DNA of 64,000 bases from Danionella cerebrum (taxonomy: Eukaryota). The first letter of the stretch is position 1, and every line of letters begins with the position of its first letter. Below the pieces are notes generated by a model that worked only from the letters and a program-made list of their open reading frames with translations, made no database searches and was not told where the DNA came from. Where the stretch lies: contig SRMA01025500.1 in the NCBI GenBank assembly GCA_007224835.1, forward strand, positions 21,870-85,869, written 5' to 3'. The position numbers and the translations under genes are program-made. Of the stretch, positions 137 through 50,641 are shown piece by piece.

Positions 137-2355
137 TGGGGTTTCAGAAGGAATCACCCAATTAAACAGCAGTGAAAGAAATGATAAAGGAAGAACATGA
201 GGGAAGGAAAGACACCACAACAGACAAACAAGAGGAAAGACCTAACAAGTATATCTGCCTAGAAAACTGCAACTTTAATTTTGAATTGGTTTTAGTACAC
301 TATTTTTTCAAGTTTTAATTTGGAAAGATATTGAAATTCTTTTGAGTCTTCAGAAAAGAAATACTTCTGGACTATCCAAAAAGTCTCATTGTGAGATCCG
401 AATAATAACTGTGAAAGATTAAAAAAAGAGAACACTCAGTGGGAACTGGAGAATTATGCCATTTCTAAAAGAGTTGAGTCTTCTTTAAGACAATAATTGC
501 ATAAATCTGCATAGATCCAAGTCCCTCCAACAACGGACCATTTCAGTTCGCCGTTTACAGACTAAATTAATCCCCACAGTGAACTTTTAGTCATTTATGA
601 AACTCAGCTGCACAAATAATAATGATGGTTTCCCCCTCCACTGAACACATCTTTCAGATCAGGAAAAACTACAGAGCATAAATAGAAGAAAATAAACTAT
701 TTGCCATTTTCAGATTCAATTCAATTGAAGGGATGGATTTGGTCTGTACTTTTTGCGTTAATACGTTGAGGTCTTTGACCTAAGCGGGAATTATTAAATA
801 TGTTTAAGGTTTAACAGAGCTTTTCTGAATACAGAGCCACAGAATTAAGAAGCATGTCCCGTCAGGAGATAAAAAAAAGAGTTTAATGAGGTTTCAGATG
901 AGAGGTGCAAGATAAGAGTCACATAAAACACCCAAGTCCATGCCCATGCATCTGGTAATCCTGCCAAAGAACATAAACTGAGGGAAATGCTGGCCAGCAG
1001 AGCAACTGGCTCTTAAGAGCAGCTCTGAGACTATAATTAGACTAAGATCAAAGCAATAAAGTAGGCTACATTAGCTACATGTTATGCCTTTCTTGACACA
1101 GCTGAGTCAAATCATTATTCCACAAATGTAGGGATGCTTCTGTTTTTTCATTTCAGCAACACTTTCAAGCATAAGCCAATATTTTATTCACAACAGAAAT
1201 ATTTAAACAGAGAATGGTTCACTTGTGTGCACTAAACAAGCTCTTTTCACATTTGATACTAAGAATGGATCTTAAATAGTTGCGGTAGAGCTAACAAATG
1301 AAACAAAAAGCTAATTATTTAGAAAGATTAACTGGGTAAAGAAGTAGCAATTAACTGAGTTAGGCTCTTTAACGTGATTGATGTCAGGGAAGCGCTGAAG
1401 TTGCACAGAAATAATATGTAGATAAATTACAACTTGTACATTTGTAAACTGTAAGTTTTTTACGACAAGATTTTGTTATGAAATAGTCAACAGATGCCCA
1501 AAATCATGAGCAAATTGGTACTCGCACAGTGTGAACTACCCAAATGTTACCAACTGGTCATGAGGTTTTAAATATTTGGTCAGAGATTCTGGCTCATGAT
1601 GAGTAAAATGTGTTCTGACTTAAATAACATCTTGGATTACCAGCCGCCAATAAAAGAGCAACGTCCGGGGCAGTGGGAAGTTAGGAAGGAGTTACAGAGG
1701 CATAGACAGCAATGTCAACTAGATGACTAAAGCATGCAAACTTTGATGTTTGAAATCTTTTTTTAATGATACCAATGTTACAATGTAAATTAAACCATCC
1801 CCTGTGTCTCTACGATTTTTCCAAGCTGAGATAGAGATATGCCAAATCGCTCAGTTCCCACTTTCCTCACGTTCGCAAATGTGACAAATAAAAGTGCGAT
1901 TTTCTAAGCAGATCAGCAAAAATGAAAAATTTTCTCCCTCAGAGATAGCTGCATCATCCATCAAAAATATTCACTGACGCTTACAATAAGAGCTCAGGAA
2001 GGATTCCATGCATATCGCAATATACAAAAAGAGTCTGACTGGGAAAACTGCAAACAACTAAATGGTTTTAGCGCCCATACATTTCCAGATTTGTATGTAC
2101 AGAAATTCAGTTTTAGTTTAAGCCAGGTGCTGAACTGGCTTGCCTGCAGTGCAATTTTTAAACCTAAACCAGGCAAAAAGTGGTCAAAAGTACAAATAAA
2201 CTCAAATAACAAATAATTAACTATAATTAGTTATGAGCCACAAAGCTCAATGTTGAAAGTTCTGTATGTTTAAATAAAGTAGGTTAGCAAAAAAAATATC
2301 TTTAAAAGCATTTTAAAAGCAATATTCAAAGAATATTGTCGAGCAGGCTTCTTAA

Positions 2356-3089
2356 CACTTAGAGGTCCAGGGCCTTTTTGAGCGTTTTTGCTATATTACA
2401 TTTTCTCTAATAAATTACCTTAATAAATAAACAATATTAAAGCTTGATATAATTTTTAGTACAACCCCATCTTCTTTTTTATTTAGAAATATTTTTCTTT
2501 ACATTACCCAATAATTCCACAATAAACCAGAAAATGTACAAGAAAATAAAATTCTGACAGTTAAATTGTAATTTTTTTCAGTGCAAAACGTAAAAAAATG
2601 AACAATTTTATGTTTAACAAAAATCAAGCGTTTTCTTGTAAAATAAAAATTCACAAATCCCTCAAACAAGCAAAGACAATGATAAAAAAATGTGAAAATT
2701 GTATAAAAAAATGGGCGAACCTCTTCTATACCTTTTACACTGTTTCAAGCACGTTTTGTTCCATTGTGCTTTCTTTTGTGCCAGAACCATATCGCAGGTC
2801 TTGTACTTCCATTGGTTATCCCTTCTTTTCACTACTACATGGCACTAATGGCACCAATTTGGGGTCCGTAAAATGAAACTGAAAGACAATCGTGCATTTT
2901 CTGACATTTTAATCATCTTCCAAATTGAGTCATAACTCTTGTAATGTTAATTTAAATGCAAAAATATCAAAACTGATAACCAAAAGAAATTAAAAATGTA
3001 TTTAAAAATACAACAATAGCTGGGTTGCATTATTCCTACTTAATTCAAAACAGCCGCTGTGATTGGTATATGCACCGGTGCCTGCAGGG
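2356..3089. mobile_element. piggyBac-like non-autonomous element (MITE), copy 1 of 5, apparently complete and flanked by TTAA
   Basis: TTAA at 2352-2355 and 3090-3093. Terminal CACTTAGAGGTCCAGGGCC at one end and GCCTGCAGGG at the other. The same family (shared motifs 'tcttttcaccactagatggcac', 'ctgaaagacaatcg', 'cctttttgaaacctac') recurs at 17.8, 28.7, 34.8 and 51.8 kb. The best-preserved termini read CCCTTAGAAAGTCTGGGGCC, which resembles the canonical piggyBac end CCCTAGAAAGATA. Confidence 0.55.
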
Positions 3090-3171
3090 TTAACAGTTTT
3101 ATACTTGTGGCAAGAAACAAATTTGTTTCTTAATTGCTCATTTATCATGTTGTCTAAAGTCTTTGGTGAAG

Positions 3172-3893
3172 CAGGGCTCTAGACTAACTTTTTGCACTGG
3201 TTGCACTGGTGCGCCTAAATTTTTTTCTTAGGTGCACCAGCACAAAAGTTAGGTGCACCCAAATTTTCAACTGCATCACATTTAACACCGCATTTTCACA
3301 AGTTCACTTTTTTAGTTCTCTATTTATTATTTTTTTTAAATCACTGTCCATAGACAATATTGACTTGTAAATGATTAACTCGCGTAACATCATTGCTGTA
3401 CGTCGGGTTTACGTTCAAGCCATTTTTCTTCATAAGAATTATTTCGGACTTGAATTTAGTGAAGGGGAGTTCTTCTTTTGCAATATTGTAGGCAACGTTA
3501 AACTTAATTCTCATCTCGGCCTCGTCTGATCTGTTTGCAGCTGCCTGCCGCTGTAAAGGTAGTTCACATCGAACGTGGTTCGCGCGGTAAGCGCGGAGGG
3601 TTTCCATGTTAAGTCAATGCAAAGACGCGTTTGCGCGCGTCTGAGGCTTCAGCGGCGCGGTAAACGCGAATTGAGAGGCGCGCTTGCCGCGATAGGCGCG
3701 TATTGAGCCGCATGAATGGGTGATACGCGTGTTGTGAGCCGCGCGCAGGAGGCGGAGCGGCCGTAGACGGAATTTCGTTTTTTTTCCCACTCGAACGACG
3801 GGTCGCACCGGTGCAACCTTTGATTTTTTTTAGTCGCACCATTGAGAAATTTGGTCGCATATGCGACCAAATTGGTCGCACTCTAGAGCCCTG
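3172..3893. mobile_element. Non-autonomous DNA transposon with 12-bp TIR (cagggctctaga / tctagagccctg) and 5-bp TSD TGAAG
   Basis: Perfect 12-bp TIR at 3172-3183 and 3882-3893. Identical 5-bp direct repeats tgaag at 3167-3171 and 3894-3898. Subterminal repeats ggtgcacc / ggtcgcac are present at both ends. Internal 3600-3780 is a CpG-rich block unlike the surrounding AT-rich DNA. Confidence 0.7.
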
Positions 3894-4865
3894 TGAAGAA
3901 CTGGTTCCCATTACATTAGTCAAATAAATAAACAGAATTCAGGCCATGTACAGAAATACTACATTTAAAACAGGCTGAACTCATATTTGGTTCACATGAG
4001 TAAAACATCATTATCACGGAGGGTTATACGAGATGAGATCAAGTTATGGTATATGATTTTAACTACTAAAAGTATTGTAGTCTCCAAAAATGTAGCTTTA
4101 AAACTCATTAAGATGGATCTCCCAGGTCAGGACAGGCACTGTAGTCAGCGCCTCAGCTGCAGAGCGAAAAAAAACAAAACGGGTCTTTTAGTACAGACTA
4201 AAGTGGGGAGGGGGGCTACACTGCTTCCTGTGTGTGAGGGTGAGCAGCTGGTGGCACAGCTGTACTAGTCTGTATGTGCATTCGTGTCTGTGAGAAATTA
4301 ACTATATATACACAAGACTGGGACCCTGTTTTCCTGCTTGATGGGAAACACCCCACTGGAAGGACATGGGGAGGCAGCATACATAGATTTAATTAGATAC
4401 AGGAGCATTAGGGTAGTAAACAAGACATGACTAAAGCAGAGCTCAGCTCTGAGAGAGAAGCAGTGGATATCAGACGTTTTTCAGCAAACGAAAGCCTTGA
4501 CACAGTAAATTAATAATTGAAATTCTGTTTTGTTAAACAAGTTGTGACCGTGTTCAGTAGTGAACCAAATGTGAACGTTGGCTGATTGCAACATATAAGA
4601 CACTAAACATAAAAAGTTTAATAAACTATTCAATTATTGATGAAATGAAGTCCTTGCTTTATTCTCGGAGTAGAACATTCAAGAAAAATTACAAAAAAAG
4701 GAGGCTTCATGTTAAAAATAGAGGCTGCCCCTACTGGGATCCAACCGGCATCAATAATGTAACCGTGTCATGACGTCTTTGTTCTTACAAGTTGAGCCAA
4801 ATATACTTATATTATATAATCTATTTATATAATCTTAACTAATATACTTACCTGTAATTATTCAC

Positions 4866-4988
4866 TGCGATGGACTGGTGACCTGTCAAGGGTATACCCC
4901 CCCCCTCTCGCCTGAGCTGGAAATAGGCACCAGCAGACCCCTGTGACCCCGTAAGGTAATAATTGGGTTAGAAAATGAATGAATGTAG
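4866..4988 (+). mobile_element. tRNA-derived SINE, 3' fragment (conserved core + gaaaatgaatgaatg tail)
   Basis: Contains 'ggactggtgacctgtcaagggtatacccc...ctctcgcc...ccctgtgaccccgtaagg...gaaaatgaatgaatg', matching the full copies at 26.6, 29.5 and 33.0 kb. Confidence 0.6.
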
Positions 4989-17600: not shown

Positions 17601-17799
17601 TTTCTGACAGCATTAACAAGAATAAGAAGCTACAGAAGCAAAACTCCATCCACTTTCAATGAGTCACTGACCTTTAAATCTCACCAGGTCTCAAGCTATG
17701 TCCAATAAACCGAGCAGAGTTCAGTTCACAATGGATCTAAAGGTTTTTTTCTATACCTTTCACAGGAATTAAATTTAACTTATTTCAAACGAATCTTAA

Positions 17800-18310
17800 C
17801 CTTTAGAAGTCTGGGGCCTTTTTGAGCATTTTTTTCTACTACACTTTGATCTAATAAATTATCTTTAAAACCGTTTTTGTGACTTAATGCTTAATATCTT
17901 TTTTTGTGACAAATGTTTTCATTATATTCCACAAATTTTACAAAAAAATACTATTACAAGTATTAAATTGTAATTTTTTACTGCACACATCTCAAAAAAT
18001 GAGAACAGTTTCAATGTTTTATAATGAAAATCAAAACTGTATAACAAAATAAAAAATTATAAACCTCCAAAAAAACAAAGACACTTTGCCAAACCTGTGC
18101 AAACACAAGCCATATCATAGCTATTGTACTTATCAACCCTTCTTTTCACCACTAGATAGCAGTGATGGCGCCAATTTGGCTTCTATAATATTAAACTGAA
18201 AGACAATCGAGGATTTTCTAATATTCTAATTACCTTACCAATAATGTGTTAATACTCTTGGAATGTTTATTTGAATCCAAAAGTATAAAAACTAAACCTT
18301 TTTGAAACCT
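17800..18310. mobile_element. piggyBac-like MITE, copy 2 (TTAA at 17796-17799, terminus CCTTTAGAAGTCTGGGGCC)
   Basis: Same family as 2356-3089. Shares 'tcttttcaccactagatagcag..gatggcgccaatttgg', 'ctgaaagacaatcgagg' and 'cctttttgaaacctacacattataagacc'. The 3' part is missing. Confidence 0.5.
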
Positions 18311-18586
18311 ACACATTATAAGACCTGCGATATGGCTTATGTTTTTCAAATTTCTTGCACAAAAGAAAGTACAATGGAACAAAAAGTGCTAGTTGAAACA
18401 GTGTACAAGCTTTTGTAGAGGGTTTATACAATATTTGCAATGTTTTGACCTTGTCTTTTCTTTTTTTGGGGACTTATGAAATTAAATTTTATTGCAATGA
18501 TTAGGATTTTGTTATAAAGCCTAAAACTGTTAGTGAGCCACTCATATTCTGCAGTAAGTAAACAACAAAATGTACTACTCCGAATT

Positions 18587-18621
18587 GTGTGTGTGTGTGT
18601 GCGTGTGCGTGTGTGTGTGTA

Positions 18622-25089: not shown

Positions 25090-25900
25090 TCCTATGCCTA
25101 GTTCTGCACGCACTTTTTGTTCCAAACATCTTGGAGAACTAAGGACAAGTCTTCTGTGGATGTAGCTTTCTCGCCGTGTCTTCATGTAATACCAAACACA
25201 CTCGATGATGTTGTTGCTATGCCATCAATTTCAGAACTTCTTGAGCTTTTTTTCACTGAAGATAGGTTTTATTGGCTGGCTGTGTGTTTGGGGTCATTGT
25301 CATGTTGCAATTGGGGCCTCCTGATGGTGTTGCATATGCAAGTGTCTTTCAATATTTCTCAATGTTCACAACAACATTAATCTCCAGCTCTATTTGCCCC
25401 AAGTATTTAAAGACCCTCCACCATGCTTCACCGTTGCTGGCAGACACTCATTATTGAACCGCTTTCTGCATCAATTAAATATTTCAATCCAAAGAGCTTG
25501 CTGCTAATTTTCTGCCCCCGAATTCCAATGTTTTCATATATCATTTATGTGCTTGGCCTTTTCTGGAAATATGGCTTTTTTTAGCTCTTCTCTGAAGAAT
25601 TCTCCAGACAGTAGTTTACCTGGGGTCTGCAAGTTCTGAGCAATGTTTTACACTTCAGAAAATCTTCTATTTCCAAAGGGTAATAAGCTTGCTCAAGTTT
25701 CCCTGTCTCCAGTAATGTCTCCCGTTCTTTGTACTTCCCCAAAAGAGCCTGAAAAGCAGTTATTAAACCTCCAGTCTGCTCTGAAATCTTTGTCTTGGTT
25801 AGATCTGGTTGATGCAGTATAACTACCTTGTGTCTTGGTGCTAAACTCAATCTTGCCATGATAAAAAACGTCTTTCTCAACGTCACATTGGTAGCAGATT
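25090..25900 (-). mobile_element. Degenerate Tc1-like transposon (transposase N-terminal HTH and mid-region remnants)
   Basis: Minus-strand 25880-25600 encodes MARLSLAPRHKVVILHQ..LTKTKISEQTGGLITAFQALLGKYKERE (Tc1 HTH-like, compare SxxLRxRIVxLHKAG.GYK.ISK). 25400-25460 carries 'ccaccatgcttcaccgttgctggcagacactcattattg', the same motif as the 60.0-kb Tc1 fragment (VKHGGG). Confidence 0.5.
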
Positions 25901-25904
25901 TTGG

Positions 25905-26035
25905 CTGTTCATCAGCCGGTTTTCTGTGAAGGACTGGCGACCTGTCCAGGGTGTACCCCTGCCTCTCACCCAATGTTCCCCCGTGACCCCGAAATGGAAT
26001 AAGCGGGGAGGAAAATGAATGAATGAATTGCCTGG
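25905..26035 (+). mobile_element. tRNA-derived SINE, 3' fragment
   Basis: 'gactggcgacctgtccagggtgtacccctgcctctcacccaatg...ccccgtgaccccgaaatggaataagcgg..gaaaatgaatgaatg'. Confidence 0.6.
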
Positions 26036-26590
26036 TTTTAAGCCTTCAACACAGCTTTTGCTCTGTCAGCTCATAACTGGGTTATAACCTTGGTGTTCAC
26101 TAGAACCTGTTAGGTAGATACTATAGGTTTTGGGTTTATCTTTTAAAATGCACCTATAAGAATTGATTAAGGCAGTCACACCAAATATTGACGGAATTTA
26201 GATCAAGTATTTTTCACCTTTAAGCATTGCTAAATAATTTGTAGAAAAATTATAAACTGCAATCCTGTCTGACTGACAGTAGCATGTCCTTTAAAATCGT
26301 AAATGGAAAAAGGAGAAGGCCCTTGTCTGTGCGTACTCACAACATTTGGGAACTAATCTGGTTTGTTTACAATGGAGTGGGAGGAGTTTATAATGGTCCA
26401 TTTGCTTCAAATGGATCCCATAACAAACAACAGAGTTGTAAACAATCAGCTTCATAATATCACAGAATGATATGCAAATAATTGCAGTCCTGGCTGCTGT
26501 GAAGTGGACAATTGGCTTAAGATGTGCATTATGAAATATGATTTATGCAAAACACTTTGCACAAAACAATACTCCAATATTGTTTGCTCT

Positions 26591-26885
26591 TGGCGGCACG
26601 GTGTCACTCCCTGGAAGGAGTTTGCACGTTCTTCCCGTGCTTGCGTGGGTTTCCTCCGGTTTCCCCCACAATCCCCAAAATCATGTGGTTAGGTTAATTG
26701 AATAATCTAAATTCCCCTTAGGTGTGAATGTGTGCGTGAATGTTGCCCTGCAATGGACTGGCGACCTGTCCAGGGTGTACCCCCACCTCTCGCCCAATGT
26801 GCGCTGGAGATAGGCATGGCCGACCCCCGTGACCCCAAAAAATGGATTAAGCGGGTTGGAGAAGGAATGAATGAATTAATGAATG
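26591..26885 (+). mobile_element. tRNA-derived SINE, full-length copy
   Basis: tRNA-like head 'ggcggcacggtg..', then 'gagtttgcacgttcttcc..gcgtgggtttcctccggtttcccccaca', then core 'tggcgacctgtccagggtgtacccc..ctctcgcccaatg', then tail 'gaatgaatgaattaatgaatgg'. Confidence 0.7.
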
Positions 26886-27899: not shown

Positions 27900-28480
27900 T
27901 TTGGGGAGCGAGTTGAGCTAGAGTTGTGACCGCGTCGCGTACACCTGTTCGGACCGCGTGCGAGAGCGACCGACTCCACGAAATTCAATTTCTCCCGGGT
28001 CTAATGAATTCCAAGCGGCTACGACGAATATTCTGCCCGTATTTGTTAAAAGACGTTTTTAGTATTTAATAAAACCTTTAGGTCCTCCGACAGATAAAGT
28101 CCTCCGTAGACGAGAGAGCCCGATGCTGTGAGTTCTCCGCTCCGTCGCGTCGCTCTCCTGCAGCCCACGCGTGGTGGAGGAGTGAGTCCGGTTTGACCAG
28201 CTCCCCCTCAGATAAGCGGCTCGCTGCGGTCCTTGAAACTTCCGTTATCTTTGCAGGACGGGTTCGAGGAGACGTACGCGTTCGCCGTGCGTTGCAGAGC
28301 AGTGCGGTGATGCTTCCGTGCGCGCGTTCACCTTCAGCGCTATTGTCACACGCGCGACAAAAGGCAGAAGGCGGCCCTGCCCATCCCGTACTTTCAATCA
28401 CGAGCAGCCTCCGAGGAGGAGACCACAAGGGAAATCCTGCCTAAGACCACTGCGGTGGCAGGGAGTTCAACCCCTCAAAG
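27900..28480. promoter_or_regulatory. CpG island, candidate promoter / 5' end of a host gene
   Basis: GC- and CpG-dense block (gaccgcgtcgcgtacacctgttcggaccgcgtgcgagagcgaccg...gcccacgcgtggtgg...gacgtacgcgttcgccgtgcg...) that contrasts sharply with the flanking AT-rich DNA. It is not part of any repeat copy seen elsewhere in the window. Confidence 0.5.
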
Positions 28481-28746
28481 TCTTACATTCTAAGACAAGT
28501 GGTAATGGTCCACAATTTGAAAAGAACAATTCAGCTCTAGAAATGTAATTTTTGTAAATCTGTTCACTCCTAACTGTTTAAGTTTCTCTTGTTTTGTTTA
28601 TGTCGTCGCGTGGCTTAGGTGAAAGTTGTTAAACATGGAACTTGAACTAGTAACCTATTTCCGTTTGCCTTGCTCGTTCTCATTCAAAGATACTCTAGTC
28701 TAGGCTCAAACTAAACCCCGCCCCCATGACGTAACATCACACTTAA

Positions 28747-29341
28747 CCCCTCCTTTCACCAGGTAAATAAAACAAGTACAATTTACCTCTAAAACTGTTT
28801 TTTGTGACAATGCTTGATATAGTTTTGTAATACAACCGCAGCTTCTTTTTTTATTTTACAAATATGTTTTTCATTACATTACACAATAATTTCAAAACAA
28901 ACCTAAAATTGTACCGGGAAAAAAAAAACAATTTAAAATTTTTAACTGTTAAATGTTTTAATTTTTTCCATCTGTTTTTATTTTTTATAACAATAATAAC
29001 AAAATAACATTTCATAATAAGATAAAATAACAATTCATAAATCATCCCAAAAAAAGAATGAAAATTATAGAAATACACCAAAAGAACATTTCATAAACCG
29101 TATACACTGTTCCAAGTACTTTTTGTGCCATAGCATTGGAAAAAACAAGCCATATTACAGGTTTTGTACTTCCTATGGTTATCTCTTCTTCTCACCACTA
29201 GATGGCACCAATCTTTTAATCTATGTTCAAAACAGAAATTATAAAAACGAATAACCTTTTTGAAACCTACCCATAATATTTGATATAAAAGTCAAATAAT
29301 AGGTGGGTTGCGTCACCAGGTTGCGCAGAAACGTCTAAGCG
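28747..29341. mobile_element. piggyBac-like MITE, copy 3 (TTAA at 28743-28746)
   Basis: Shares 'tcttctcaccactagatggcacc', 'cctttttgaaacctacccataatatttgatataaaagtc' and the end '..ggtgggttgcgtcaccaggttgcgcag' with the other copies. Confidence 0.45.
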
Positions 29342-29544
29342 TTTAACATACAAATAACTTCATGTTTAGTGTTATATCTTCTGTAAAAAAGGAATTACAG
29401 ATACATAAAATGTACAATGTATAAAAGTCAATATTTCAAAAAAGTATTTTTAACGAATCACTGAGAAGGTGTTTTCTTCTCTGGGAGATCAATATTAGAA
29501 GTAACACTGTTTTTTCATGAGCTTTTCTAAATGAAGTACTGGTG

Positions 29545-29799
29545 TGGGCAGCACGGTGGCGCAGTGGATAGCACTGCGGCCTTCCAGTTAGAAGGTTGCT
29601 GTTTCAAGGTTTGCTGGTGACCTTCCTGCAAGTAGTTTGCATGTTCTCCCCCGTTTCTCTGGGTTCCCCAACAATCCCAAAAACTTGCATGTGAGTGTGT
29701 GTTGTCCTGCAATAGACCAGTGATGTGAGCTGGAGATAGGCCCCAGCAGACCCCCGTGACCCCGAAAGGGAATAAGCGGGATGGAAAATGAATGAATGA
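29545..29799 (+). mobile_element. tRNA-derived SINE, full-length copy
   Basis: Head 'gggcagcacggtggcgcagtggatagcactgcggccttccagttagaaggttgctgtttcaaggtttgctggtgacc' with tRNA-like A/B boxes. Then 'gtttgcatgttctccc', then core, then 'gaaaatgaatgaatga'. Confidence 0.7.
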
Positions 29800-31689
29800 T
29801 TGATAAAGTACTGGTGTGAGTCCATCCTGGGTTTGTTCCTGGTGTTTTAAAAAGAAGATGGGTAATGCTGAATAAAGCATCAACTTTGCCATATGGTCAT
29901 TCACTTAACCAAAAAAGTGGCGGTATGGTGGTGTTGGTTATTCTAGCAAGCCACTGTTAATAATGCGGCTAAAAGGTTACACGTTTTAACGTTTTGGTTT
30001 TAAAGGTTTGGTAACAAAGGTTACAAGAGATATGACACTATTAACAAGTGACACGATGTGCAATCATCTTTCAGTTTACGGACTCCAAATCGGTGCCATC
30101 AGTGCCATCTTGGGATGAAAACCCTTGGAAGCACAATACCTGTGATATAAGACAATTTAATTCTCAGAATTTTTTTTAACAATTTCTTGATTGTTTTGAA
30201 CTAGAAAAAGTATATCAAGCACTGACACAAAAAAAACTGTTTAAAAATAAAATTTCTTAGAGCAAATTCGTGAAATGCTCAAAATGGCTGCAGACTTGCC
30301 GTAATAACTTGACTGAACAAACGAGATGTTATAGATGTCTCTCTGACATTACTTTTATCTCTTGATGTATTGCAAAACACTAAACCATCTCTGTTTACAT
30401 CAACAACTGACAGCCGTCTTAAGTTATATGTAACATTTAATAATGTGATAGGATTTGGATTGATTTTGTTAAGCATCATCATTGTTAAGTGCCTTGCTAA
30501 AAGACCTAGCGATGCCGCCTGGAGCCAAAAAACTCAATTTCCTGGGCAAAAGCTTTACTCGGGTTCCCAACTCAGCAATTCAAGCTTCCTGTTTATAGCA
30601 TAATAACATATGTATCATTTATAATGCAGTATGGTTGTCATAAACATATAAACCCTTATCTTTTCAAATGCACAGATTGTTTTAGTTTAGTTTGTTCCTA
30701 CACAGAATTCACACATATGCAGCTACATTTATAAATATTTATAATATAGCTGTCCCGCTGTAACAGGATGAGTGGAAAGCAAGCACTGCAGCTAAGATGT
30801 ACTGTTACATGGTTTAATTCACTCAAGAAACAAGGAGTGAGGAGTACAGTGCCTCAAAAACCAATCATTGACAAAAAGAAACTGGGTGCAGAGGGACTAA
30901 ATACACATGGAAATCAAGACAACGAGGGAGTGACCGGATGTAAACAATGCGCTAACAGGTGGGGAACTAATGACCATGTGAAAACCAGAGACACTAAGTT
31001 CTGACAGTACCCTTGGCATGGCATCAGAGACATATCCAGCTGTATCTGCACCACTCTCAAAACACCAGCATGAGACTGGTGGGGTGGAGTCAAACAATTA
31101 TAATGCTCGTCACTACAGAATGTACTGTGGTGACACAAAGTTCGTAGGTTTGTGTGAGTTTCTTCACGCAGACATCTCCAGACCGTTCTAATGCTGGTGT
31201 CCCTGAAGTGATAATCACGTGATGTGGCTGCAGCTGGATTTTAATTTGTCCAAGGAGTGGGTTTGGGGCACAAGGGAACACACAGTCTTTGGGTGGGGGC
31301 AGTTCAAAGAAAAAGCTGGCATTTCAGAGGTTGAACCGACACCTGGTGGGTTGCTGAAAACCGATGCTCTGCCTAGGAGTTACTCAACTGAGCTGACACC
31401 AAGAACCCGGAGGGCTGTGAAGGTGCATGCATGATCTTTTTCATGGCGACTTAGGGTGTGGGGGTAGTGGGGTGGGAGATGGAGTTCATTCAAGCCTCTA
31501 TGACAGACTTAAGCCGGTCTAGACTGTGAGGTGACAACCTCCGAAAGTGGAGCTATAGGGGCGAGGAAGGATTCAAGACTGGAGGATCAAGGCTGTAGGG
31601 TCATGGACAATGGTAAAGCATGGGGACATGTTTGCATGTCCAAAAAGAGAACATAGAGAGAGGGTTTCCAATCTTTTAGTTTGACAGCA

Positions 31690-31870
31690 AGTGGGTGGGT
31701 GGGAAAGGAACTTTTGGCTGGACCCTGCAGTGGATCCAGACTCAGGCACGGAGAAAGATGTGAATGTTTCCTGGAGGAAACCCCCAGAGGAAAGCATGGG
31801 GAGAACATGCAAACCCCTTCCTGGAAGGTCACCGGCAAGCCTCGAACCGAGAACCCTACAGTGTTATGCC
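31690..31870 (-). mobile_element. SINE fragment (antisense), same family
   Basis: Reverse complement of 'ggagaacatgcaaacc..ccagggaaac' and 'ggtcaccggcaagcctcgaaccgagaaccc' (tRNA-like head). Confidence 0.45.
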
Positions 31871-32949
31871 CTACAAATATTGTGATGCACATTGTATCAT
31901 GGACAGAATGTCGAGGTATGATGCAATTTAAGGCTCTTTCAGCTGCATAACCTTACATTACCTCCTTCCTTTATCTATCTGCATGTTTTCTCATCCTTCT
32001 TGTGAAAAGCCAGCTTTACATTTAAATTCCCATCATGAGGAAAGGACGATTATGTCATGGTCAGTTCTTAAAGCTTTGAGTCGACTTCAAGGAGCAACCC
32101 ATACACAGTGTTGTTGCTTCAGGGAGAAACATTTGCAAAGACATTTCATCTGACGTTTGCATATTTTTGCAGAGCATTCAGAGATAAATAAATCATTCAT
32201 TCCCTCCATTGCTTTGGGAGCTCATTTTAGCTCATCGGGAAAACTGAGCTAAGCTGGAAGGCTATGGTGTTTTTCTCTCAGTCTTCATTTATGTCTTGCA
32301 TATGATTACACTTTGGAAAATGTAAAGATTAAACATCACAATGAAGCCTCTGCGACCAAGTAGTCTAAAATAATTACATAAGATAGAATTAATTTAAAAA
32401 AATCCAAATGGAATTTTAAAATCTAAAATTATATTATGTTCCTGAACCTAAAAGTGGACATTTACAACACAAACATGCCTTTGTTTTGTTTAGCATTTGT
32501 CCCATTCTTTGCAACAGAATCTTCAAACTTTATTGGAAGTCATTCAACCAGCTTCTGCTTCATTCAACTCCAGTTTTTGGTTCTGCCTAATATGGTTCTC
32601 TTAGAATATTCAGTCTGAAGCTTCGTGCGACAATGTGCCTCGATCGAATACTGTGGGCACCAACACACACATCTGAGCGAACGAGTGGTAAGAATGAGAA
32701 TCGCCTCCCTGACCGGCAGTGTTCCCAAAGAGCAGTTTCCCAAAAGCAAGATGATATGACTGCGCATATTGTGTTTCATCTACGTCTGCACAACTTTGAT
32801 TCTTTTGATATTTGGCACCAGTTTATCAGAAAGTGCCAATTTTGTGTTTTTGCGCTCATTGGATGGAAACTGTGCTTTTTCGCAAATATTTTATACAACA
32901 TTTCAGTTTTGCGCATGAATTTTACTCTGCTGAAACATATGCCATGCAC

Positions 32950-33268
32950 CATTCATTCATTTTTCAACCCGCTTATTTCCAACCGGGTTTGCCGGTGCCT
33001 ATCACATTGGGCGAGAGGTGGGGGTACACCCTGGACAGGTCACCGGTCCTTCGCAGGGCAACATTCACACCTGACAGTGAATTTAGATTATTCAATTAAC
33101 CTAACTGCATGTTTTTGGGATTGTGGGGGAAACCGGAGTACCCAGAGGAAACCCACGCAAGCACAGGGAGAACATGCAAACTCCTTGCAGGAAGGTCACT
33201 GGCAAGCCTTGAACTGGCAACCTCCTTACTGGAACGCAACAATGCTACCCACAGCACCACCATGGCTC
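32950..33268 (-). mobile_element. tRNA-derived SINE, full-length copy, minus orientation
   Basis: Exact reverse-complement organisation of the 26.6-kb copy: 'cattcattcattttt..ccgcttatttcc..gggcgagaggtgggggtacaccctggacaggtcaccgg...ggagaacatgcaaactcc...ggagccatggtggtgctgtgggtagc'. Confidence 0.7.
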
Positions 33269-34548
33269 CATTCAAATATTTTCATATTAACAAAACCAAA
33301 CTGGAACAATACAAATATTCAAATTAGTTAATATCATAAATAAAATTTGCATTTTTGTTGTTTTTCTGTGCTTTATCTGTTTGAAATATTTTGGGACAAC
33401 CGTTCTCTCAGGCAAATAACTACCTTCATTTCAGCAAGTAAGTTATGTCTTCAGATGCTGTATTTGTGAGCAACCAATAGAAAATACCTTGTGAAAATGA
33501 TAGAAGACCTTTTAGAGAAATATTATTGAATATTTCAGTTTTTTTGTTAACTTCCCCCATGACTTATGCACAGTCTATTTGAATAAATCATGACATCCTT
33601 TGCCAAAAGGGCTTTCGTGGCTCTTCAAAGTGCACATTAACAAGCTGTAAGAAGGAGAAAATGGGCCTTTTCTCATTTTCTCCTCTCCCTTTCTAATACG
33701 GCAGTGCTGACAACAGAATGTGAGGTCAATAGGACCTGGCACAGTAATATCTCTTCTACGCGAAATTAGAGTTTAATGAAACAGGATATGAGAACACTCT
33801 GACATGGCAATGCGTATGTCATTGAAGAGGCAATTCTTCCTCGTCTCCAGCCGGGACAGAGGCTTTCACACAAGCTCTCCATCCTTCGTGGAGGAGACTG
33901 ATTCCTCACGGAGAGGAAGAAATCGCTCTTTATTGTGACTCCTGAAGGGACTGATCTGTAAATTGATGCAACAAAAGGACTTACAACAGCTTGCAAGACC
34001 ATGGGAGATTGTGACAGGCGAAGCCAGAGGAACCATCTAAGATGTCTAAAAACTGTTCTCACATGATGATAGTCCTGGAAATTTATAGACAGATTTTTTA
34101 GCTACGGGACAAGATGATGTGAGGCTGTGCAAACGCTTTTTCCAGTCTTCTCTATTTTTTTGTTTCACAGAATGCAGTTCATCTAAATTATTTTGTGTTT
34201 TCAGAATGCTCTTCTAGACTTTGTGTTTCATTGATCCCTACAATTCTAAACACGAATGTGTATTTCACAGAATAAAGTGTGGTTAAGCATTTAAGATCTT
34301 AACCACTTTTTATTTACATTTAAAATCAAATGAGGTTATGTTATCTGATGCCCATAGCAGGGGGTAACAGCTTCTGTATTTCTGAGCATGTTTCCTGGAA
34401 GGTAAATGAAGCCACCTCCTATAATAATACATTGTAAAAAGACTCTATTCAAAATAGTTGACTAATTTGCAAGCAGAGTGTCAAATATTAAGTGCCACGT
34501 GTAGGTTGAAGCCCAGTCATGGAATGAAATAAAAACAGGCTTAATAGT

Positions 34549-34790
34549 GTGTTTAGGAGCAGCCAAAATCTGCACCAAGGTGAGGTTGAGAAAGACATTA
34601 TTGTCATGGAAAGATTGAGAACAGCAACAAGACAGAAGGTAGTTATACTGCATCGACAAGGTCTCAAGATTTCAAAGACTATTGGTTCAAGATGTGCAGT
34701 TGAAGCTCTTCAAGGAAAACAGCAAGATTTAGGATCGTTGATACAGTGTTTGCCCAAGGAAACTTGTGAAGTAGATGCAAAGAACATTTA
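34549..34790 (+). mobile_element. Tc1-like transposon, 5' fragment (transposase N-terminal HTH)
   Basis: Encodes MERLRTATRQKVVILHRQGLKISKTIGSRCAVEALQGKQQDL (compare Tc1 SEDLRLRIVAAHKAGKGYKTISK...). It is abruptly replaced at 34791 by the terminus of a piggyBac-like MITE. Confidence 0.5.
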
Positions 34791-35237
34791 CCCTTAGAAA
34801 GTCTGGGGCCTTTTAGAGCGTTTTTTTTATTTTTTTACTCTAATAAATTGCCCTTAAACCAGTTTTGTTGTGGCAGACTTGAGATAAAAAAACTTGAGAA
34901 TTAACAGTTTTTATGTTTTATAGCAAAACACTAAAACATTGGGACAAAAAAGAATCATAAATCCCCCCGAAAAGCAAAGACAAGATCAAAAAAAGTGAAA
35001 ATTGTTTAAAAAAAAAACAGGCGAACATTCAGTTCCAGCATTTTAACTCAAGCCATCTCACAGGTCTAGGACTTACAAGGGTTATCCCTTCTTTTCACCA
35101 CTAGATGGCACTCATGGCATTGATTTGGAGTCTATAAAATGAAACCGAAAGACATTTTCATTTTTGTCATAATTCTTGTAATGTTTCTTTAAAACCAAAA
35201 ATATCAAAGTGAATGACCTTATTGAAACCTACATATT
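34791..35237. mobile_element. piggyBac-like MITE, copy 4 (terminus CCCTTAGAAAGTCTGGGGCC)
   Basis: Best match to the canonical piggyBac end. Contains 'tcttttcaccactagatggcactcatggcattgatttggagtctataaaatgaaaccgaaagaca'. Followed by (GA)n. Confidence 0.5.
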
Positions 35238-35243
35238 ATATTT

Positions 35244-35278
35244 GAGAGAGAGAGAGGGAGAGGGAGAGAGAGAGATTA
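35244..35278. repeat. (GA)n microsatellite, imperfect
   Basis: gagagagagagagggagagggagagagagagagat. Confidence 0.85.
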
Positions 35279-44303: not shown

Positions 44304-45042
44304 TAGGGGTGTAACGGTACGCTAAAATTGTATTCGGTTCGGTACAGTGTCTTGGAGAGTTCGGTTCGGTTCATTCGGTTCTGTACAAAACAATAACAAC
44401 TTACATAATCTTTATTTTGAAAAGCTGTCAATACACAGTAGAATTCATGCATAAAATAAATAAAAGTGACACATTTGGGTGATATTTTAAATGAATTGCA
44501 CTCTTTATTAAGAAAAACACATTTTTTTAAATAAAAAATGAAATACTGCAACTAGTTAGGATAGATAGGATGGATTAACCTACCCACATTTTCTGAAGAG
44601 AGCACAGATCTGGTTGCAGTGACAATATCTCCAGCAGTAGAAAATGTTAGATGTGTTGCCTGCCTGATCTCCGTGGAACAATGTCGGCATACAACTTTAA
44701 ATGTATCCACTCGTCTATCCCCCGTTATGTATTTTAACAGAGAAGCGAAAGTGTTCTCAAACAGGAGACTGTAGTGAGGTGGGAGGGTCTTCAAGCTCTG
44801 GCTTCTCTTTCGCTGTGTCCATTTCTCACAGCTACTTCGTGCAGCTCTACTGTGCGTCACTCAATAGCGTCCGTGCGGAAACTTGCCTAGGAACATTGTT
44901 CCGCTGCGCTTAATGTCGCGCTAATAATACATTTATATCATTTAATAAAAATACAGAATACCGAAACGGTACGCAAGTGTACCGAACCGAAGAGGCCGTA
45001 CCGAAACGGTTCAATACATCCCCGTGAACCGTTACACCCTTA
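44304..45042. mobile_element. hAT-type non-autonomous element (MITE) with 8-bp TSD
   Basis: TIR TAGGGGTGTAACGGTAC / GAACCGTTACACCCTTA. Flanking direct repeats atttctga (44296-44303) and atttctca (45043-45050), a 7/8 match. The 8-bp duplication is diagnostic of hAT. Subterminal cggttcggtac / ccgaaccgaa repeats are present. Confidence 0.7.
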
Positions 45043-47513: not shown

Positions 47514-50500
47514 CTTCTTCTTCTACTTTCGGCTGTTCCCAGTTTAGGGGTCGCCACAGCGAATCATCCTTTTCCACCTAACTCTGTCTTCAGTATCCTC
47601 TACTCTTGCACCAACCATGTCCTCTTTCAGCACATCCATATATCTCGTCTTTGGCCTTCCTCTTGACCTCTTTCCTGGTAGCTCCATCTCCAACATCCTT
47701 CTACCAATATAACCACTATCCCTCCTCTGCACATGTCCAAACCATCTCAACCTGGCCTCTCTGACTTTGTCTCCAAAACAACCAACCTGAGCTGTCCCTC
47801 TGATGTGCTCGTTCCTAATCTTGTCCATCCTAGTCACTCCTAAACTGAACCTCAACATCCTCATCTCTGCTACTTCCAGCTCTGCCTCTTGTCTCTTCCT
47901 CACTGCCACAGTCTCCAACCCATACATCATAGCTGGTCTCACTACTGTTCTGTACACCTTTCCTTTGATTCTTGCTGACACTCTTCTGTCACACAACACC
48001 CCTGACACTTTTCTCCACCCACTCCAACCTGCCTGCACTCGTCTCTTCACCTCTTTTCCACACTCCCCGTCACACTGGACTGTTGACCCCAAATACCTAA
48101 ACTCCTGCACCTTCTTGACCTCATCCCCCTGTAACCTCACTGTTCTATTTCCCTCCCTCTCGTTCAAACACATGTATTCTGTCTTGCTGCGACTGACTTT
48201 CATTCCTCTTCTTTCTAGAGCTGACCTCCAACTTTCCAGGTTTTCCTCCACCTGCTCTCTGCTCTCACTACAAATTACAATGTCATCTGCAAACATCATT
48301 GTCCACGGCGATTCCTGCCTGACCTCATCTGTCAACCTGTCCATCACCATAGCAAATAAGAAGGGACTCAAAGCTGATCCTTGATGTAGCCCCACCTCCA
48401 CCTTGAACTCCTTTGTCTGACCTACAGCACATCTCACTGCTGTCTTACTTCTCTCATACATATCCTGAACTACTCTGACGTACTTCTCTGCCACTCCTGA
48501 CCTCCTCATACAGGACCATAGCTCTTCTCTTGGCACCCTGTCATACGCTTTTTCTAAATCCACAAAGACGCAGTGAAGCTCTTTCTGACCATCTCTGTAC
48601 TTCTCCATTAACAATCTCAGAGCAAAAATTGCATCAGTAGTGCTCTTCCTGGGCATGAAGCCATACTGCTGTTCACAAATATCCACTTCCCTTCTTAGCC
48701 TAGCTTCCACTACTCTTTCCCAAAGTTTCATTGTGTGGCTCATCAACTTTATGCCTCTGTAGTTGTTACAACTCTGCACATCACCCTTGTTCTTAAAGAT
48801 TGGTACTAGGACACTTCTCCTCCATTCCTCAGGCATCTTCTCACTCTCTAAAATCCTGTTGAATAACCTAGAAAGGAACTCCACTGCTGTCTCTCCTAGA
48901 CACTTCCACACCTCCACTGGTATGTCATCTGGACCAACAGCCTTTCCACTCTTCATTCTCCCCAGAGCCTTCCTCACCTCATCCTTTCTAATCTTTTCAA
49001 CTTCCTGCTCTACAGTATTCACCTCTTCCTCCCTTCTTTCCCTTTCATTCTCCTCATTCATCAACTCCTCAAAATACTCCTTCCATCTTCTCAGCACACT
49101 CTCCTCACTTGTTAGCACCTTTCCATCTCTATCTTTAATCACCCTTATCTGTTGCACATCCTTCCCATCTCTGTCTCTCTGTCTGGCTAATCTATACAAT
49201 TCCTTCTCGCCTTCCCTCGTGTCTAACCTGGCATACAACTCATCATATGCTTTCTGTTTGGCCTTTGCCACCTCCCTCTTCACTCTGCGCTGCGATTCCT
49301 TGTAGTCCTGTCTACTTTCTTCAGTCCTTTCAATGTCCCACTTCTTTTTAGCTAGCCTCTTCCTCTGGATGATGTCCTGTACTTCCTCATTCCACCACCA
49401 TGTTTCTTTATCTTCTTTCCTCCTTCCAGCTGACACACCTAGCACCTTTCTTCCTGTCTCCCTGATCAATTCTGCTGTAGTTTCCCAGTCATCTGGAAGC
49501 TCTTCCTGACCACCCAAAGCCTGTCTCAGCTTCTGTCTGAATTCTTCACAATCTTCTTCCTTTTTCAACTTCCACCACTTGGTCTTCTTTTCAATCTTTC
49601 GTCTTCTCTTCTTCCTGACCACCAGAAACATCCTACACATCACCATCCGATGCTGTCTGGCTACACTCTCCCCTACCACTACTTTACAGTCTCTGATCTC
49701 TCTCAGATTGGCTCGTCTACAAAGGATGTAGTCTACCTGCGTACTCCTCCCTCCACTCTTGTAGGTAACTCTATGTTCCTCCCTCTTCTGGAAATAAGTA
49801 TTAACTACAGCCATTTCCATCCTCTTGGCAAAGTCCACCACCATCTGTCCTTCTAGGTTCCTTTCCTTAACACCGTACCTGCCCATCACCTCCTCATCAC
49901 CTCTGTTGCCCTCGCCAACATGCCCGTTGAAATCTGCTCCCACTACTACTCTCTCCCCTCTGGGAACACTCTCAATCACCTCATCCAGCTCACTCCAAAA
50001 TCTCTCCTTCTCTTCCAACTTACAGCCTACTTGTGGAGCATAACCACTCACTACATTCAACATCACCCCTTCAGTTTCTAACTTCAAACTGATCACCCTG
50101 TCTGACACTCTTTTCACCTCTAAAACATTCCTCACAAACTCCTCCTTCAGGATCACTCCTACCCCATTTCTCTTCCTATCCACACCATAGTAAAACAGTT
50201 TGTATCCCCCTCCAATACTACGCCCTTTGCTACCCTTCCACCTGGTCTCCTGCACACACAGAATATCTACCTTTCTTCTCTCCATCATGTCCGCCAGCTC
50301 CCTACCCTTCCCTGTCATTGTACCAACGTTAAGAGTCCCTATTCTCAGATCTACACTCCTGCCTTTCCTGTTCTCTTTCTGTCGACGAATCCTTCTCCCT
50401 CCTCTCCTTCTTCGACAAACAGTAGTCCAATTTCCAGCGGCACCCTGTAAGTCAACAGCACCGGAGGCGGTCGTTGTTAACCCGGGCCTCGACCGATCCG

Positions 50501-50641
50501 GTATGAAAATCGATTTGGTGACTCGCATATTTGGTTTTGGCATATTTTACGCCGGATGCCCTTCCTGACGCAACCCTCTCTATTTATCCGGGCTTGGGAC
50601 CGGCACAGAAGTCACTGGCTTGCAACCCCTGAGGCTAGATT
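47514..50641 (-). mobile_element. Full-length non-LTR retrotransposon (single-ORF APE+RT, RTE-clade-like), about 3.13 kb, with 17-bp TSD
   Basis: Single 999-aa ORF with a 98-nt 5' UTR and a 30-nt 3' UTR ending in a (GAA)n tail ('..gtagaagaagaag'). Direct repeats cccatccatctccgagt (47497-47513) and cccatccacctccgagt (50642-50658). Removing the element rejoins one continuous repeat sequence. Confidence 0.85.
47544..50543 (-). CDS. LINE polyprotein: N-terminal AP endonuclease (EEP fold) + reverse transcriptase, 999 aa, no internal stops
   Basis: Endonuclease motifs: LNVGTMTGKGRELADMMERRKVDILCVQETRW, VVGADFNGHVG, TQVDYILCRR. RT motifs: PIFKNKGD, YGFMPRKSTTDAIF, HCVFVDLEKAYDRV, GLHQGSALSPFLFAMVMD, MMFADDIVI (FADD box). 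ATG at 50543-50541, stop TAA at 47546-47544. Confidence 0.85.
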   Translation of the reverse strand: MPKPNMRVTKSIFIPDRSRPGLTTTASGAVDLQGAAGNWTTVCRRRRGGRRIRRQKENRKGRSVDLRIGTLNVGTMTGKGRELADMMERRKVDILCVQETRWKGSKGRSIGGGYKLFYYGVDRKRNGVGVILKEEFVRNVLEVKRVSDRVISLKLETEGVMLNVVSGYAPQVGCKLEEKERFWSELDEVIESVPRGERVVVGADFNGHVGEGNRGDEEVMGRYGVKERNLEGQMVVDFAKRMEMAVVNTYFQKREEHRVTYKSGGRSTQVDYILCRRANLREIRDCKVVVGESVARQHRMVMCRMFLVVRKKRRRKIEKKTKWWKLKKEEDCEEFRQKLRQALGGQEELPDDWETTAELIRETGRKVLGVSAGRRKEDKETWWWNEEVQDIIQRKRLAKKKWDIERTEESRQDYKESQRRVKREVAKAKQKAYDELYARLDTREGEKELYRLARQRDRDGKDVQQIRVIKDRDGKVLTSEESVLRRWKEYFEELMNEENERERREEEVNTVEQEVEKIRKDEVRKALGRMKSGKAVGPDDIPVEVWKCLGETAVEFLSRLFNRILESEKMPEEWRRSVLVPIFKNKGDVQSCNNYRGIKLMSHTMKLWERVVEARLRREVDICEQQYGFMPRKSTTDAIFALRLLMEKYRDGQKELHCVFVDLEKAYDRVPREELWSCMRRSGVAEKYVRVVQDMYERSKTAVRCAVGQTKEFKVEVGLHQGSALSPFLFAMVMDRLTDEVRQESPWTMMFADDIVICSESREQVEENLESWRSALERRGMKVSRSKTEYMCLNEREGNRTVRLQGDEVKKVQEFRYLGSTVQCDGECGKEVKRRVQAGWSGWRKVSGVLCDRRVSARIKGKVYRTVVRPAMMYGLETVAVRKRQEAELEVAEMRMLRFSLGVTRMDKIRNEHIRGTAQVGCFGDKVREARLRWFGHVQRRDSGYIGRRMLEMELPGKRSRGRPKTRYMDVLKEDMVGARVEDTEDRVRWKRMIRCGDP

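Follow-up and report, generated by a model that had tools for sequence, protein, structure and literature searches.

The 64-kb window (the whole stretch of DNA analysed here, 64,000 nucleotides) contains one interspersed repeat family in seven fragments: five on the + strand, near 2.35, 17.8, 28.7, 34.8 and 51.8 kb, and two on the minus strand (Table 1). An earlier, sequence-only reading of this DNA had described a five-copy family. The dispersed, non-coding repeat it described is real, but two minus-strand fragments had been missed and the count is seven, a density of 7 fragments per 64 kb. Homology among the copies spans hundreds of bases (blastn, iterated nhmmer). The block TCTTTTCACCACTAGATGGCAC occurs five times with at most 2 mismatches, always on the + strand (2824, 18141, 29187, 35090 and 51997), where shuffled sequence gives an expectation of 0, and a degenerate 23-mer matches all five + strand copies exactly. 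The earlier statement that all copies share the internal blocks holds for this block; CCTTTTTGAAACCTAC is found in four copies (2 to 5) and CTGAAAGACAATCG in three only.

Table 1. Members of the TTAA-flanked repeat family and the elements nested in or adjoining them
Feature	Position	Strand	Details
Copy 1	2352-3093	+	element proper 2356-3089, 734 bp; TTAA at 2352-2355 and 3090-3093
Copy 2	17796-18320	+	TTAA at 17796-17799, then CCTTTAGAAGTCTGGGGCC
Fragment 2b	18315-18596	-	family centre, model ~192-456, inverted
Copy 3	28743-29315	+	TTAA at 28743-28746, then CCCC...; secure homology 28779-29315, model ~60-670
Fragment 3b	29949-30297	-	model 636-425 and 210-10, inverted
Tc1-like fragment	34557-34786	+	ends exactly at the copy-4 junction
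Copy 4	34787-35244	+	TTTA at 34787-34790, then CCCTTAGAAAGTCTGGGGCC from 34791
Copy 5	51801-52556	+	3' end ...GTGTGCAGAG (52556); nested SINE-like insert
SINE-like element in copy 5	52096-52379		direct repeat CAAATTAT (52088-52095) / CAATTAT (52380-52386)

The 300-bp flanks of the copies have nothing in common, and the copies therefore represent independent insertions, not a segmental duplication. Pairwise identity among them is 56-76%, which marks the family as old and dead; none of the copies in the window is still able to move. The elements have no coding capacity, in agreement with the earlier description of a dispersed, non-autonomous family.

Copy 1 is the sole complete element and the only copy with both ends; its tips read CACTTAG... 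and ...CTGCAGGG. The other + strand copies are each reduced differently. Copy 2 has lost an internal stretch (model ~347-434) and breaks off on its 3' side at model ~630; fragment 2b adjoins this truncated end, tail to tail. In copy 3 the first ~40 nt are strongly diverged, and ~630 bp downstream lies fragment 3b, also tail to tail, with its terminal 7 nt not recognisable. Copy 4 has the best preserved 5' tip in the family, an internal deletion (model ~91-226) and a 3' truncation at model ~633, at the start of a (GA)n run. Copy 5 has lost its 5' ~70 nt, or they are no longer recognisable, and model ~200-419 is deleted; its 3' end falls at the same family boundary as that of copy 1, with AATT as the flank and TTAA 3 bp beyond (52560-52563).

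Internal deletions are concentrated in the AT-rich centre, and there are truncations, one SINE insertion and rearrangements besides. Conservation within the family is highest in the 30 nt at the 5' end (0.92), as expected of an end recognised by a transposase. The copies have this 5' end in common and vary by internal deletion, a pattern of DNA-transposon deletion derivatives and not of 5'-truncated retroposons.

TTAA stands on both sides of copy 1, exactly where homology to the other copies stops, and it encloses termini of the form CAC...GGG, just as the sequence-only reading had stated. This is the only two-sided case. Copies 2 and 3 start immediately after a TTAA, again in line with that reading. 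Overall, TTAA is present at four of six observable element boundaries (P ~7e-8, calculated with the window frequency of 0.0082, or one TTAA per 122 positions). Without empty sites, duplicated target and element-internal sequence are not distinguishable as the source of the 5'-side TTAA.

The consensus tips are CCCT...AGGG. Individual 5' tips read CCCTTA (copy 4 and consensus), CCTTTA (copy 2) and CACTTA (copy 1), and the 3' end, kept in two copies only, both diverged, reads ...CAGGG (copy 1) and ...CAGAG (copy 5). The consensus 5' hexamer fits the piggyBac tip motif C[C/A/T][C/A/T][T/G/A][T/A/G][T/G/A] (PMC5381638); the 3' tip read inward, CCCTGC, fits it at 5 of 6 positions. The end of T. ni piggyBac is CCCTAGAAAGATAGTCTG (PMC3078864), close to the family 5' tip CCCTTAGAA(A)GTCTG. 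With the shared CCCT set aside, an equal score against this end is reached by 1-3% of shuffles, and the previously noted nearness of the copy-4 terminus to it is upheld.

The two ends of the element are a different matter. The sequence-only reading had named a lack of inverted repeats at the consensus termini as evidence against itself, and this is essentially what is found: the consensus 5' end CCCTTAGAAGTCTGGGGCC and the reverse-complemented 3' end CCCTGCAGGCACCGGTGCA pair over the first 4 nt only (CCCT/AGGG), and alignment of the 60-nt ends is no better than that of shuffled sequence (402/1000 shuffles score as well). At the tips, 10 of the first 20 positions pair; after CCCT, 2 of 10 positions do so within the canonical 14-nt TIR. 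A search for a terminal inverted repeat within copy 1 likewise returned none. In piggyBac elements the TIRs span 12-19 bp, or 5-19 bp for the structurally simplest group (PMC5381638), longer than the 4 bp paired here, where the 3' end is represented by two diverged copies only.

Taken together, the boundary TTAA, the CCC.../...GGG tips, the non-coding sequence and the many internal-deletion variants, all of which recall non-autonomous elements of the piggyBac superfamily, suggest that these are probably old relics of a piggyBac-type DNA transposon, the best fit to the data. Since the TIR is only 4 bp and the 3' end is preserved in just two copies, this assignment is not proven. The earlier piggyBac-like label is borne out by the TTAA boundaries, the tips and the likeness of the 5' end, but not by any TIR beyond 4 bp. 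A scan of the window for a piggyBac transposase remnant gave only noise (query: a piggyBac transposase sequence).

If the piggyBac-type assignment is correct, the family would have consisted of ~730-bp non-coding cut-and-paste DNA transposons, now extinct, in a teleost genome. Mobilisation would have depended on a transposase from another locus, most likely a piggyBac-superfamily enzyme, that recognised terminal and sub-terminal sequences and cut precisely at the CCC.../...GGG tips; the excised element would then have reinserted at TTAA tetranucleotides, with duplication of the TTAA. The copies would since have decayed through the deletions, truncations, SINE insertion and rearrangements described above.

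Known piggyBac-type MITEs include human MER85 and MER75 and the 'piggyBac-N' entries of fish repeat libraries. Compared with these, 734 bp lies at the upper end of 'miniature', and the copies here are heterogeneous and old. A MITE in the strict sense is short, has TIRs and a high copy number, and its copies are highly similar (PMC6004289). The earlier use of that term is not sustained in this sense: the TIR is absent, the copies are as diverged as noted above, and the length is borderline.

The two tail-to-tail inverted pairs are unexplained under the piggyBac-type assignment. They lead to an alternative, which we consider unlikely, in which the ~730-bp unit is one arm of a longer long-TIR or foldback element, both true ends are CCCTTAGAAGTCTGGGGCC, and solo copies are half-elements or derivatives. 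Two of the five + strand copies (1 to 5) have an inverted partner immediately downstream (17796-18320/18315-18596 and 28743-29315/29949-30297), and in both pairs the 5'-type termini point outward, an arrangement of two adjacent pairs with a chance probability of ~0.005 (rough estimate). An arm structure would also explain why the 5' and 3' ends of the unit are not mutual inverted repeats. Against it, copies 1 and 5 stop at the same 3' boundary, and the TTAA there in copy 1 indicates a genuine 3' terminus. Identity between the two arms of a pair (0.56 and 0.68) does not exceed that between unrelated copies. Fragment 3b shows neither the expected terminus nor TTAA at its outer end, and the point where copy 2 meets fragment 2b has no TTAA and resembles a deletion or rearrangement. 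Moreover, only two such pairs are present.

The asymmetry of the ends also bears on a more improbable reading: some other or unknown mobile element without inverted repeats, in which TTAA is the element's own sequence or reflects an AT-rich target preference. TTAA at the 5' end of every copy retaining that end could be element sequence, and the 3' flank of copy 5 is not TTAA. Set against this is copy 1, where a further TTAA directly follows the 3' limit of homology; in addition, coincidence would have to account for both the CCC/GGG tips and the piggyBac-like 5' tip. Helitrons, as one such type, lack support in their hallmarks (5' TC, 3' CTRR, insertion between A and T, a conserved 3' hairpin), which are absent; the 10-bp palindrome GCACCGGTGC of copy 1 is not kept in copy 5.

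Slighter still is the probability that the family is a non-autonomous member of a different superfamily that duplicates TTAA or another 4-bp target, for example Sola or the Kolobok/T2-type MITEs common in fish and frogs. The TTAA flanks are present, Kolobok/T2-MITEs too target TTAA (PMC6004289), and a family lacking a piggyBac-length TIR leaves its superfamily open. The family further resembles Kolobok/T2-MITEs (Xenopus Xmix and relatives, fish 'Kolobok-T2' repeats) in being non-autonomous and dispersed, and these elements are long-lived in cold-blooded vertebrates (PMC6004289). Their defining feature, though, is a purine terminus (RR; AG or AGGRR) directly after TTAA, in the TIR (PMC6004289), and this is absent here: the family starts CCC, CCT or CAC and ends ...GGG.

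An origin as a retroposon (SINE or 3' portion of a LINE), a satellite or a segmental duplication is hardly credible. In its favour, the copies are unequal in length and A/T-rich. Against it, they have no tRNA, 7SL or 5S head and no Rfam match, and their shared 3' boundary carries neither poly(A) nor a simple-repeat tail. Losses fall in the 3' end or centre and the 5' end is kept, the reverse of the 5' truncation typical of LINEs. The copies show no variable-length duplications and lie 6-17 kb apart in unrelated flanks, neither tandem nor segmental. CACTA elements, considered because copy 1 starts CACT, as well as PIF/Harbinger (TWA) and Tc1/mariner (TA), were rejected on their termini and duplication patterns.

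Nesting relations give the family a place in a relative chronology. The SINE-like element proposed earlier within one copy is confirmed in copy 5, where it has its own direct repeat; relatives of it lie at 4858-4985, 25924-26025, 26607-26883, 29493-29806, 31759-31855 and 32948-33272. The truncated Tc1 noted beside copy 4 is likewise present and runs up to the junction. Here, the break in the Tc1-like element coincides exactly with the family 5' tip and falls at a tetranucleotide resembling TTAA: the uninterrupted homologue at 60.2 kb has ...GATACA|ATAA|GCTC, and the sequence at copy 4 reads ...GAACA|TTTA|CCC. The possibility that the copy-4 terminus is itself Tc1 sequence was rejected; the Tc1 copy at 25.7 kb reads TTACCCTTTGGAAA at this position, and alignment scores are within the shuffle range. 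No continuation of the Tc1 that would give a two-sided empty site was found within 3.8 kb downstream of copy 4. The insertion order drawn previously is retained: the Tc1 copy predates copy 4 and the SINE-like insert postdates copy 5, which dates this Tc1 copy and the SINE family relative to the TTAA-flanked family.

Searches beyond the window returned no relatives of the family. nhmmer found no match at E <=10 in 182 kb of Hemibagrus, Silurus, Pangasius, Sinocyclocheilus, Logan and ENA loci. The degenerate core pattern that matches all five copies was absent from the metagenome, prokaryotic genome and viral contigs scanned, and the 5'-tip pattern from the viral contigs scanned. A 1876-aa multi-frame pseudo-protein of the conserved block had no match at E <=1 in a set of 5.8 billion proteins, and no tRNA or Rfam family was found in the element copies.

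Old non-autonomous DNA transposon families of this ordinary sort are routinely present in fish genomes, and this one may already be catalogued in a repeat library. Masking it is advisable before genes or regulatory elements are annotated in the region. Its sole point of wider reach is an embedded CTCF consensus, which lies in the conserved block and had been overlooked by the sequence-only reading.

The best-conserved internal block of the family has the consensus CCACTAGATGGCAC, which perfectly fits the vertebrate CTCF core CCASYAGRKGGCRS (PMC6746451) and contains no CpG. Perfect matches occur on the + strand in copy 3 (29195-29209), copy 4 (35098-35112) and copy 5 (52005-52019). These three are the only ones in the window, where 0.01 are expected, and they lie in the same orientation within 23 kb. 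The motif has 1 mismatch in copy 2 (18149-18162, CCACTAGATAGCAG), is degenerate in copy 1 (2 mismatches, 2832-2846, CTACTACATGGCACT) and is partly deleted in fragment 3b. It is thus intact in 3 of the 6 motif-bearing fragments, despite ~20% divergence per copy. By a rough binomial estimate, this retention has p ~0.015 when judged by whole-element divergence and ~0.07 when judged by the block's own. Selective retention of the motif was rejected as not significant on the latter measure. The block is only modestly better conserved than the others (pairwise 0.78 vs 0.70-0.72).

As a side effect of transposition, each copy would have brought along a consensus CTCF motif, always oriented the same way within the element. 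Transposable elements that carry CTCF sites are known: mouse SINE B2, the MER20 DNA transposons and, in zebrafish, SINE3-1a and the non-autonomous hAT element HATN9_DR (PMC7786948, PMC9341505). The likeness to such families lies in a full CTCF core within the repeat consensus, so that transposition spreads potential sites. The zebrafish carriers are SINE or hAT elements, whereas the candidate here is a TTAA-type DNA transposon with a motif predicted from sequence alone. It is doubtful, if conceivable, that the family spread ready-made predicted CTCF sites through this fish lineage and that the host has retained some for use in chromatin loops or boundaries. If so, it would parallel the mouse SINE B2 wave, with a TTAA-type DNA transposon as the carrier. 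Occupancy of the motif in vivo would make it a further repeat expansion seeding chromatin-architecture sites, in this case in a teleost and by a DNA transposon; mammals offer well-established examples of such seeding, and the zebrafish examples to date all involve other repeat families.

Two further features of the window concern its coding-like content. The GC-rich non-repeated ORFs resemble Tc1, hAT and LINE debris, not exons. The window also contains an intact LINE ORF, which no record matched exactly; over its full length and over a short variable segment alike, its best protein relatives are 87-89% identical (Hemibagrus, Pangasius, Silurus), with medaka at 86%.

A 22-nt block picked out by the sequence-only reading matches five times in the 64-kb window, always on the + strand and with at most two mismatches (shuffled sequence gives none), and a degenerate 23-mer is matched exactly in 5/5 copies. 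Homology spanning hundreds of bases, and seven fragments in total, emerge from blastn self-comparison and from an iterated nhmmer profile that starts from 2352-3093 (copy c1). The five-copy family of that reading is therefore real on the + strand (c1-c5), but its count was too low, as two more fragments (c2b and c3b) lie on the - strand. The 300-base flanks of the copies are mutually dissimilar; the copies thus represent independent insertions, not tandem or segmental duplicates. Identity between copies is 56-76% over aligned columns (K2P 0.30-0.68). Individual copies differ by ~18-29% from the majority consensus, a divergence understated for c1, on which the model was seeded; the family is thus old and inactive. 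No further copies were found in metagenome, prokaryotic-genome or viral collections or by translated-ORF search, nor was the family found in 182 kb of loci from fishes with a related LINE (Hemibagrus, Pangasius, Silurus and others).

Features of the window, with family copies placed on the c1-based profile (model) and a slash marking each element boundary
Feature	Position	Strand	Detail
c1	2352-3093	+	model full length; 5' end TTAA/CACTTAGAGGTCCAGGGCC; 3' end ...GCACCGGTGCCTGCAGGG/TTAA
c2	17796-18320	+	model ~1-347 and 434-630; 5' end TTAA/CCTTTAGAAGTCTGGGGCC
c2b	18315-18596	-	model 192-456
c3	28743-29315	+	model secure ~60 to ~670; 5' end TTAA/CCCC..., then ~40 nt diverged
c3b	29949-30297	-	model 10-210 and 425-636
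c4	34787-35244	+	model 2-91 and 226-633, then (GA)n run; 5' end TTTA/CCCTTAGAAAGTCTGGGGCC
c5	51801-52556	+	model 69-200, 419-570, nested insert, then 546-738; 3' end ...GCACCGCTGTGTGCAGAG/AAT-TTAA
Perfect CTCF-consensus 15-mer	29195-29209 (c3); 35098-35112 (c4); 52005-52019 (c5)	+	
Degenerate CTCF motif	2832-2846 (c1); 18149-18162 (c2)	+	two mismatches; one mismatch
SINE-like family	4858-4985; 25924-26025; 26607-26883; 29493-29806; 31759-31855; 32948-33272; 52096-52379	both	seven copies/fragments
Tc1/mariner-type transposase fragments	25415-26045; 34557-34786; 60013-60440; ~16.4 kb; ~62 kb		decayed
hAT-type remnants	~3300-3500; 44555-44860		
LINE ORF	47544-50543	-	999 aa, intact
GC-rich segments	3514-3938; 28081-28545		CpG-island-like
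(GA)n microsatellites	97-133; 35245-35275		

The boundaries of the family point to TTAA-targeted insertion. The window has one TTAA per 122 positions; the tetranucleotide stands at 4/6 family boundaries (P ~7e-8) and on both sides of c1 (P ~7e-5). The 3' end is known from two decayed copies only, c1 and c5, and is a real boundary because their similarity stops at the same point. The consensus tips are CCCT...AGGG, and the inward-read ends (CCCTTAGAAGTCTGGGGCC versus CCCTGCAGGCACCGGTGCA) agree in the first four bases only. In local alignment of the 60-nt ends, 402/1000 shuffles score as well, and a repeat search of c1 reported no terminal inverted repeat. The sequence-only reading had named termini without inverted repeats as a result that would refute it, and beyond four bases such termini are what was found; this deserves weight, even though the 3' end comes from just those two decayed copies. 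Conservation is 0.92 over the 5' 30 nt, ~0.8 in two internal blocks and 0.4-0.6 in the AT-rich centre, a profile that fits a deletion-derivative family whose ends mattered for mobility.

According to a review, the hallmarks of the piggyBac superfamily are a duplicated TTAA, TIRs 12-19 bp long (5-19 bp for its simplest group) and the tip motif C[C/A/T][C/A/T][T/G/A][T/A/G][T/G/A], which is only loosely conserved (PMC5381638). The family shares the target and the tip motif but, when tested, not the TIR length, so the piggyBac-like reading holds for target and tips, fails for the inverted repeats and leaves formal membership unproven. The 5' tip resembles the classical T. ni piggyBac end, TTAA-CCCTAGAAAGATAGTCTGCG (PMC3078864), and only 1-3% of shuffles that keep CCCT reach its score; the 3' tip shows no resemblance to that end. 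The copies form an ordinary and ancient family of non-autonomous DNA transposons, and the element probably worked as a piggyBac-type, TTAA-targeting transposon mobilised in trans.

Directly downstream of c2 and of c3 lies an inverted partner fragment (17796-18596 and 28743-30297). Both pairs are tail to tail with the 5'-type termini outward, for which we estimate a chance of roughly 0.005; two pairs are too few to choose between the readings that follow. One possibility would be local hopping followed by deletion. Alternatively, the parent element could be longer and have long inverted arms, the family unit being one of them; this would also account for the missing TIR. However, c1 and c5 share a defined 3' end, followed by TTAA in c1, and the paired arms are 0.56 and 0.68 identical, no closer than unrelated copies. 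The main TTAA-target alternative to a piggyBac-type element is Kolobok/T2-MITE, whose defining purine terminus (AG, AGGRR; PMC6004289) the family lacks. A retroposon is rejected: there is no tRNA or Rfam match and no tail, and the copies have lost their centre or 3' end but kept the 5' end.

Two junctions bear on insertion order. The truncated Tc1 said to abut c4 was borne out, as this fragment is homologous to the 25.7- and 60.2-kb copies right up to the c4 junction. The uninterrupted 60.2-kb copy reads ...GATACA/ATAA/GCTC versus ...GAACA/TTTA/CCC at c4, placing the break at a TTAA-like tetranucleotide (each one mismatch from TTAA). No resumption of Tc1 was seen downstream of c4, making this interruption test one-sided. 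The family tip was also considered as Tc1 sequence, to which its slight resemblance is at chance level. One (GA)n microsatellite starts exactly at the c4 truncation point, which suggests that truncation and expansion are linked. The nested SINE proposed in c5 is likewise confirmed as a SINE-like insert; it is younger than c5, since a separate 7-8-bp direct repeat (CAAATTAT / CAATTAT), a target duplication, flanks it and the window holds six further members of its family. No tRNA-like head was picked up in this family by ARAGORN or Rfam, and one of its copies sits between c3 and c3b.

The best-conserved internal block of the transposon family reads ...TTCACCACTAGATGGCACT..., within which CCACTAGATGGCAC perfectly matches the genome-wide human CTCF consensus, CCASYAGRKGGCRS (PMC6746451). 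Just three sites in the 64-kb window match the 15-mer CCACTAGATGGCAC[T/C] perfectly, against 0.01 expected from shuffles; in c3b the motif is partly lost. The motif contains no CpG, and conservation of its block exceeds that of neighbouring blocks by a modest margin (0.78 versus 0.70-0.72 pairwise). A rough binomial estimate of motif retention gives p ~0.015 to ~0.07, depending on the divergence assumed, and makes no solid case for selection. Mammals offer familiar cases of repeats that carry CTCF sites (SINE B2, MER20; PMC7786948), and such repeats have been reported in zebrafish (SINE3-1a, HATN9_DR; PMC9341505). If bound, the motif would be one more example of this phenomenon, a modest upside should the embedded candidate sites prove occupied.

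The window as a whole, teleost DNA of 39% GC, is rich in Tc1-like, hAT-like and SINE-like debris, the Tc1/mariner and hAT remnants being called by eye on translations rather than by domain search. The longer hAT remnant carries a C-terminal dimerisation-like motif, FSTAGDIVTATRSVLSSENV. The two GC-rich segments have 56-61% GC versus the 39% background, and no host exon was recognised. The segment at 28081-28545 ends ~200 bp upstream of c3 and may be a promoter, because a GC box and CRE-like TGACGTAA come after it at ~28716-28733.

The LINE ORF encodes AP-endonuclease and reverse-transcriptase domains. Its best relatives are catfish proteins (87-89% over Hemibagrus, Pangasius and Silurus taken together), with 87-89% identity to hundreds of Hemibagrus guttatus proteins and 84-86% to Pangasius; a medaka protein cluster is 86% identical, Sinocyclocheilus 79% and Erpetoichthys 69%. 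At the DNA level, identity is 83-85% to the Pangasius locus and to a Logan (SRA-run) contig. Such high similarity between distant fish orders suggests a lineage that is very slowly evolving or spreading horizontally. A 'hypothetical protein' filed under the bacterium Alcanivorax profundi (protein match P0195, on a 2.7-kb contig) is a 301-aa piece of this fish-type LINE, almost certainly from fish DNA contaminating that bacterial assembly.
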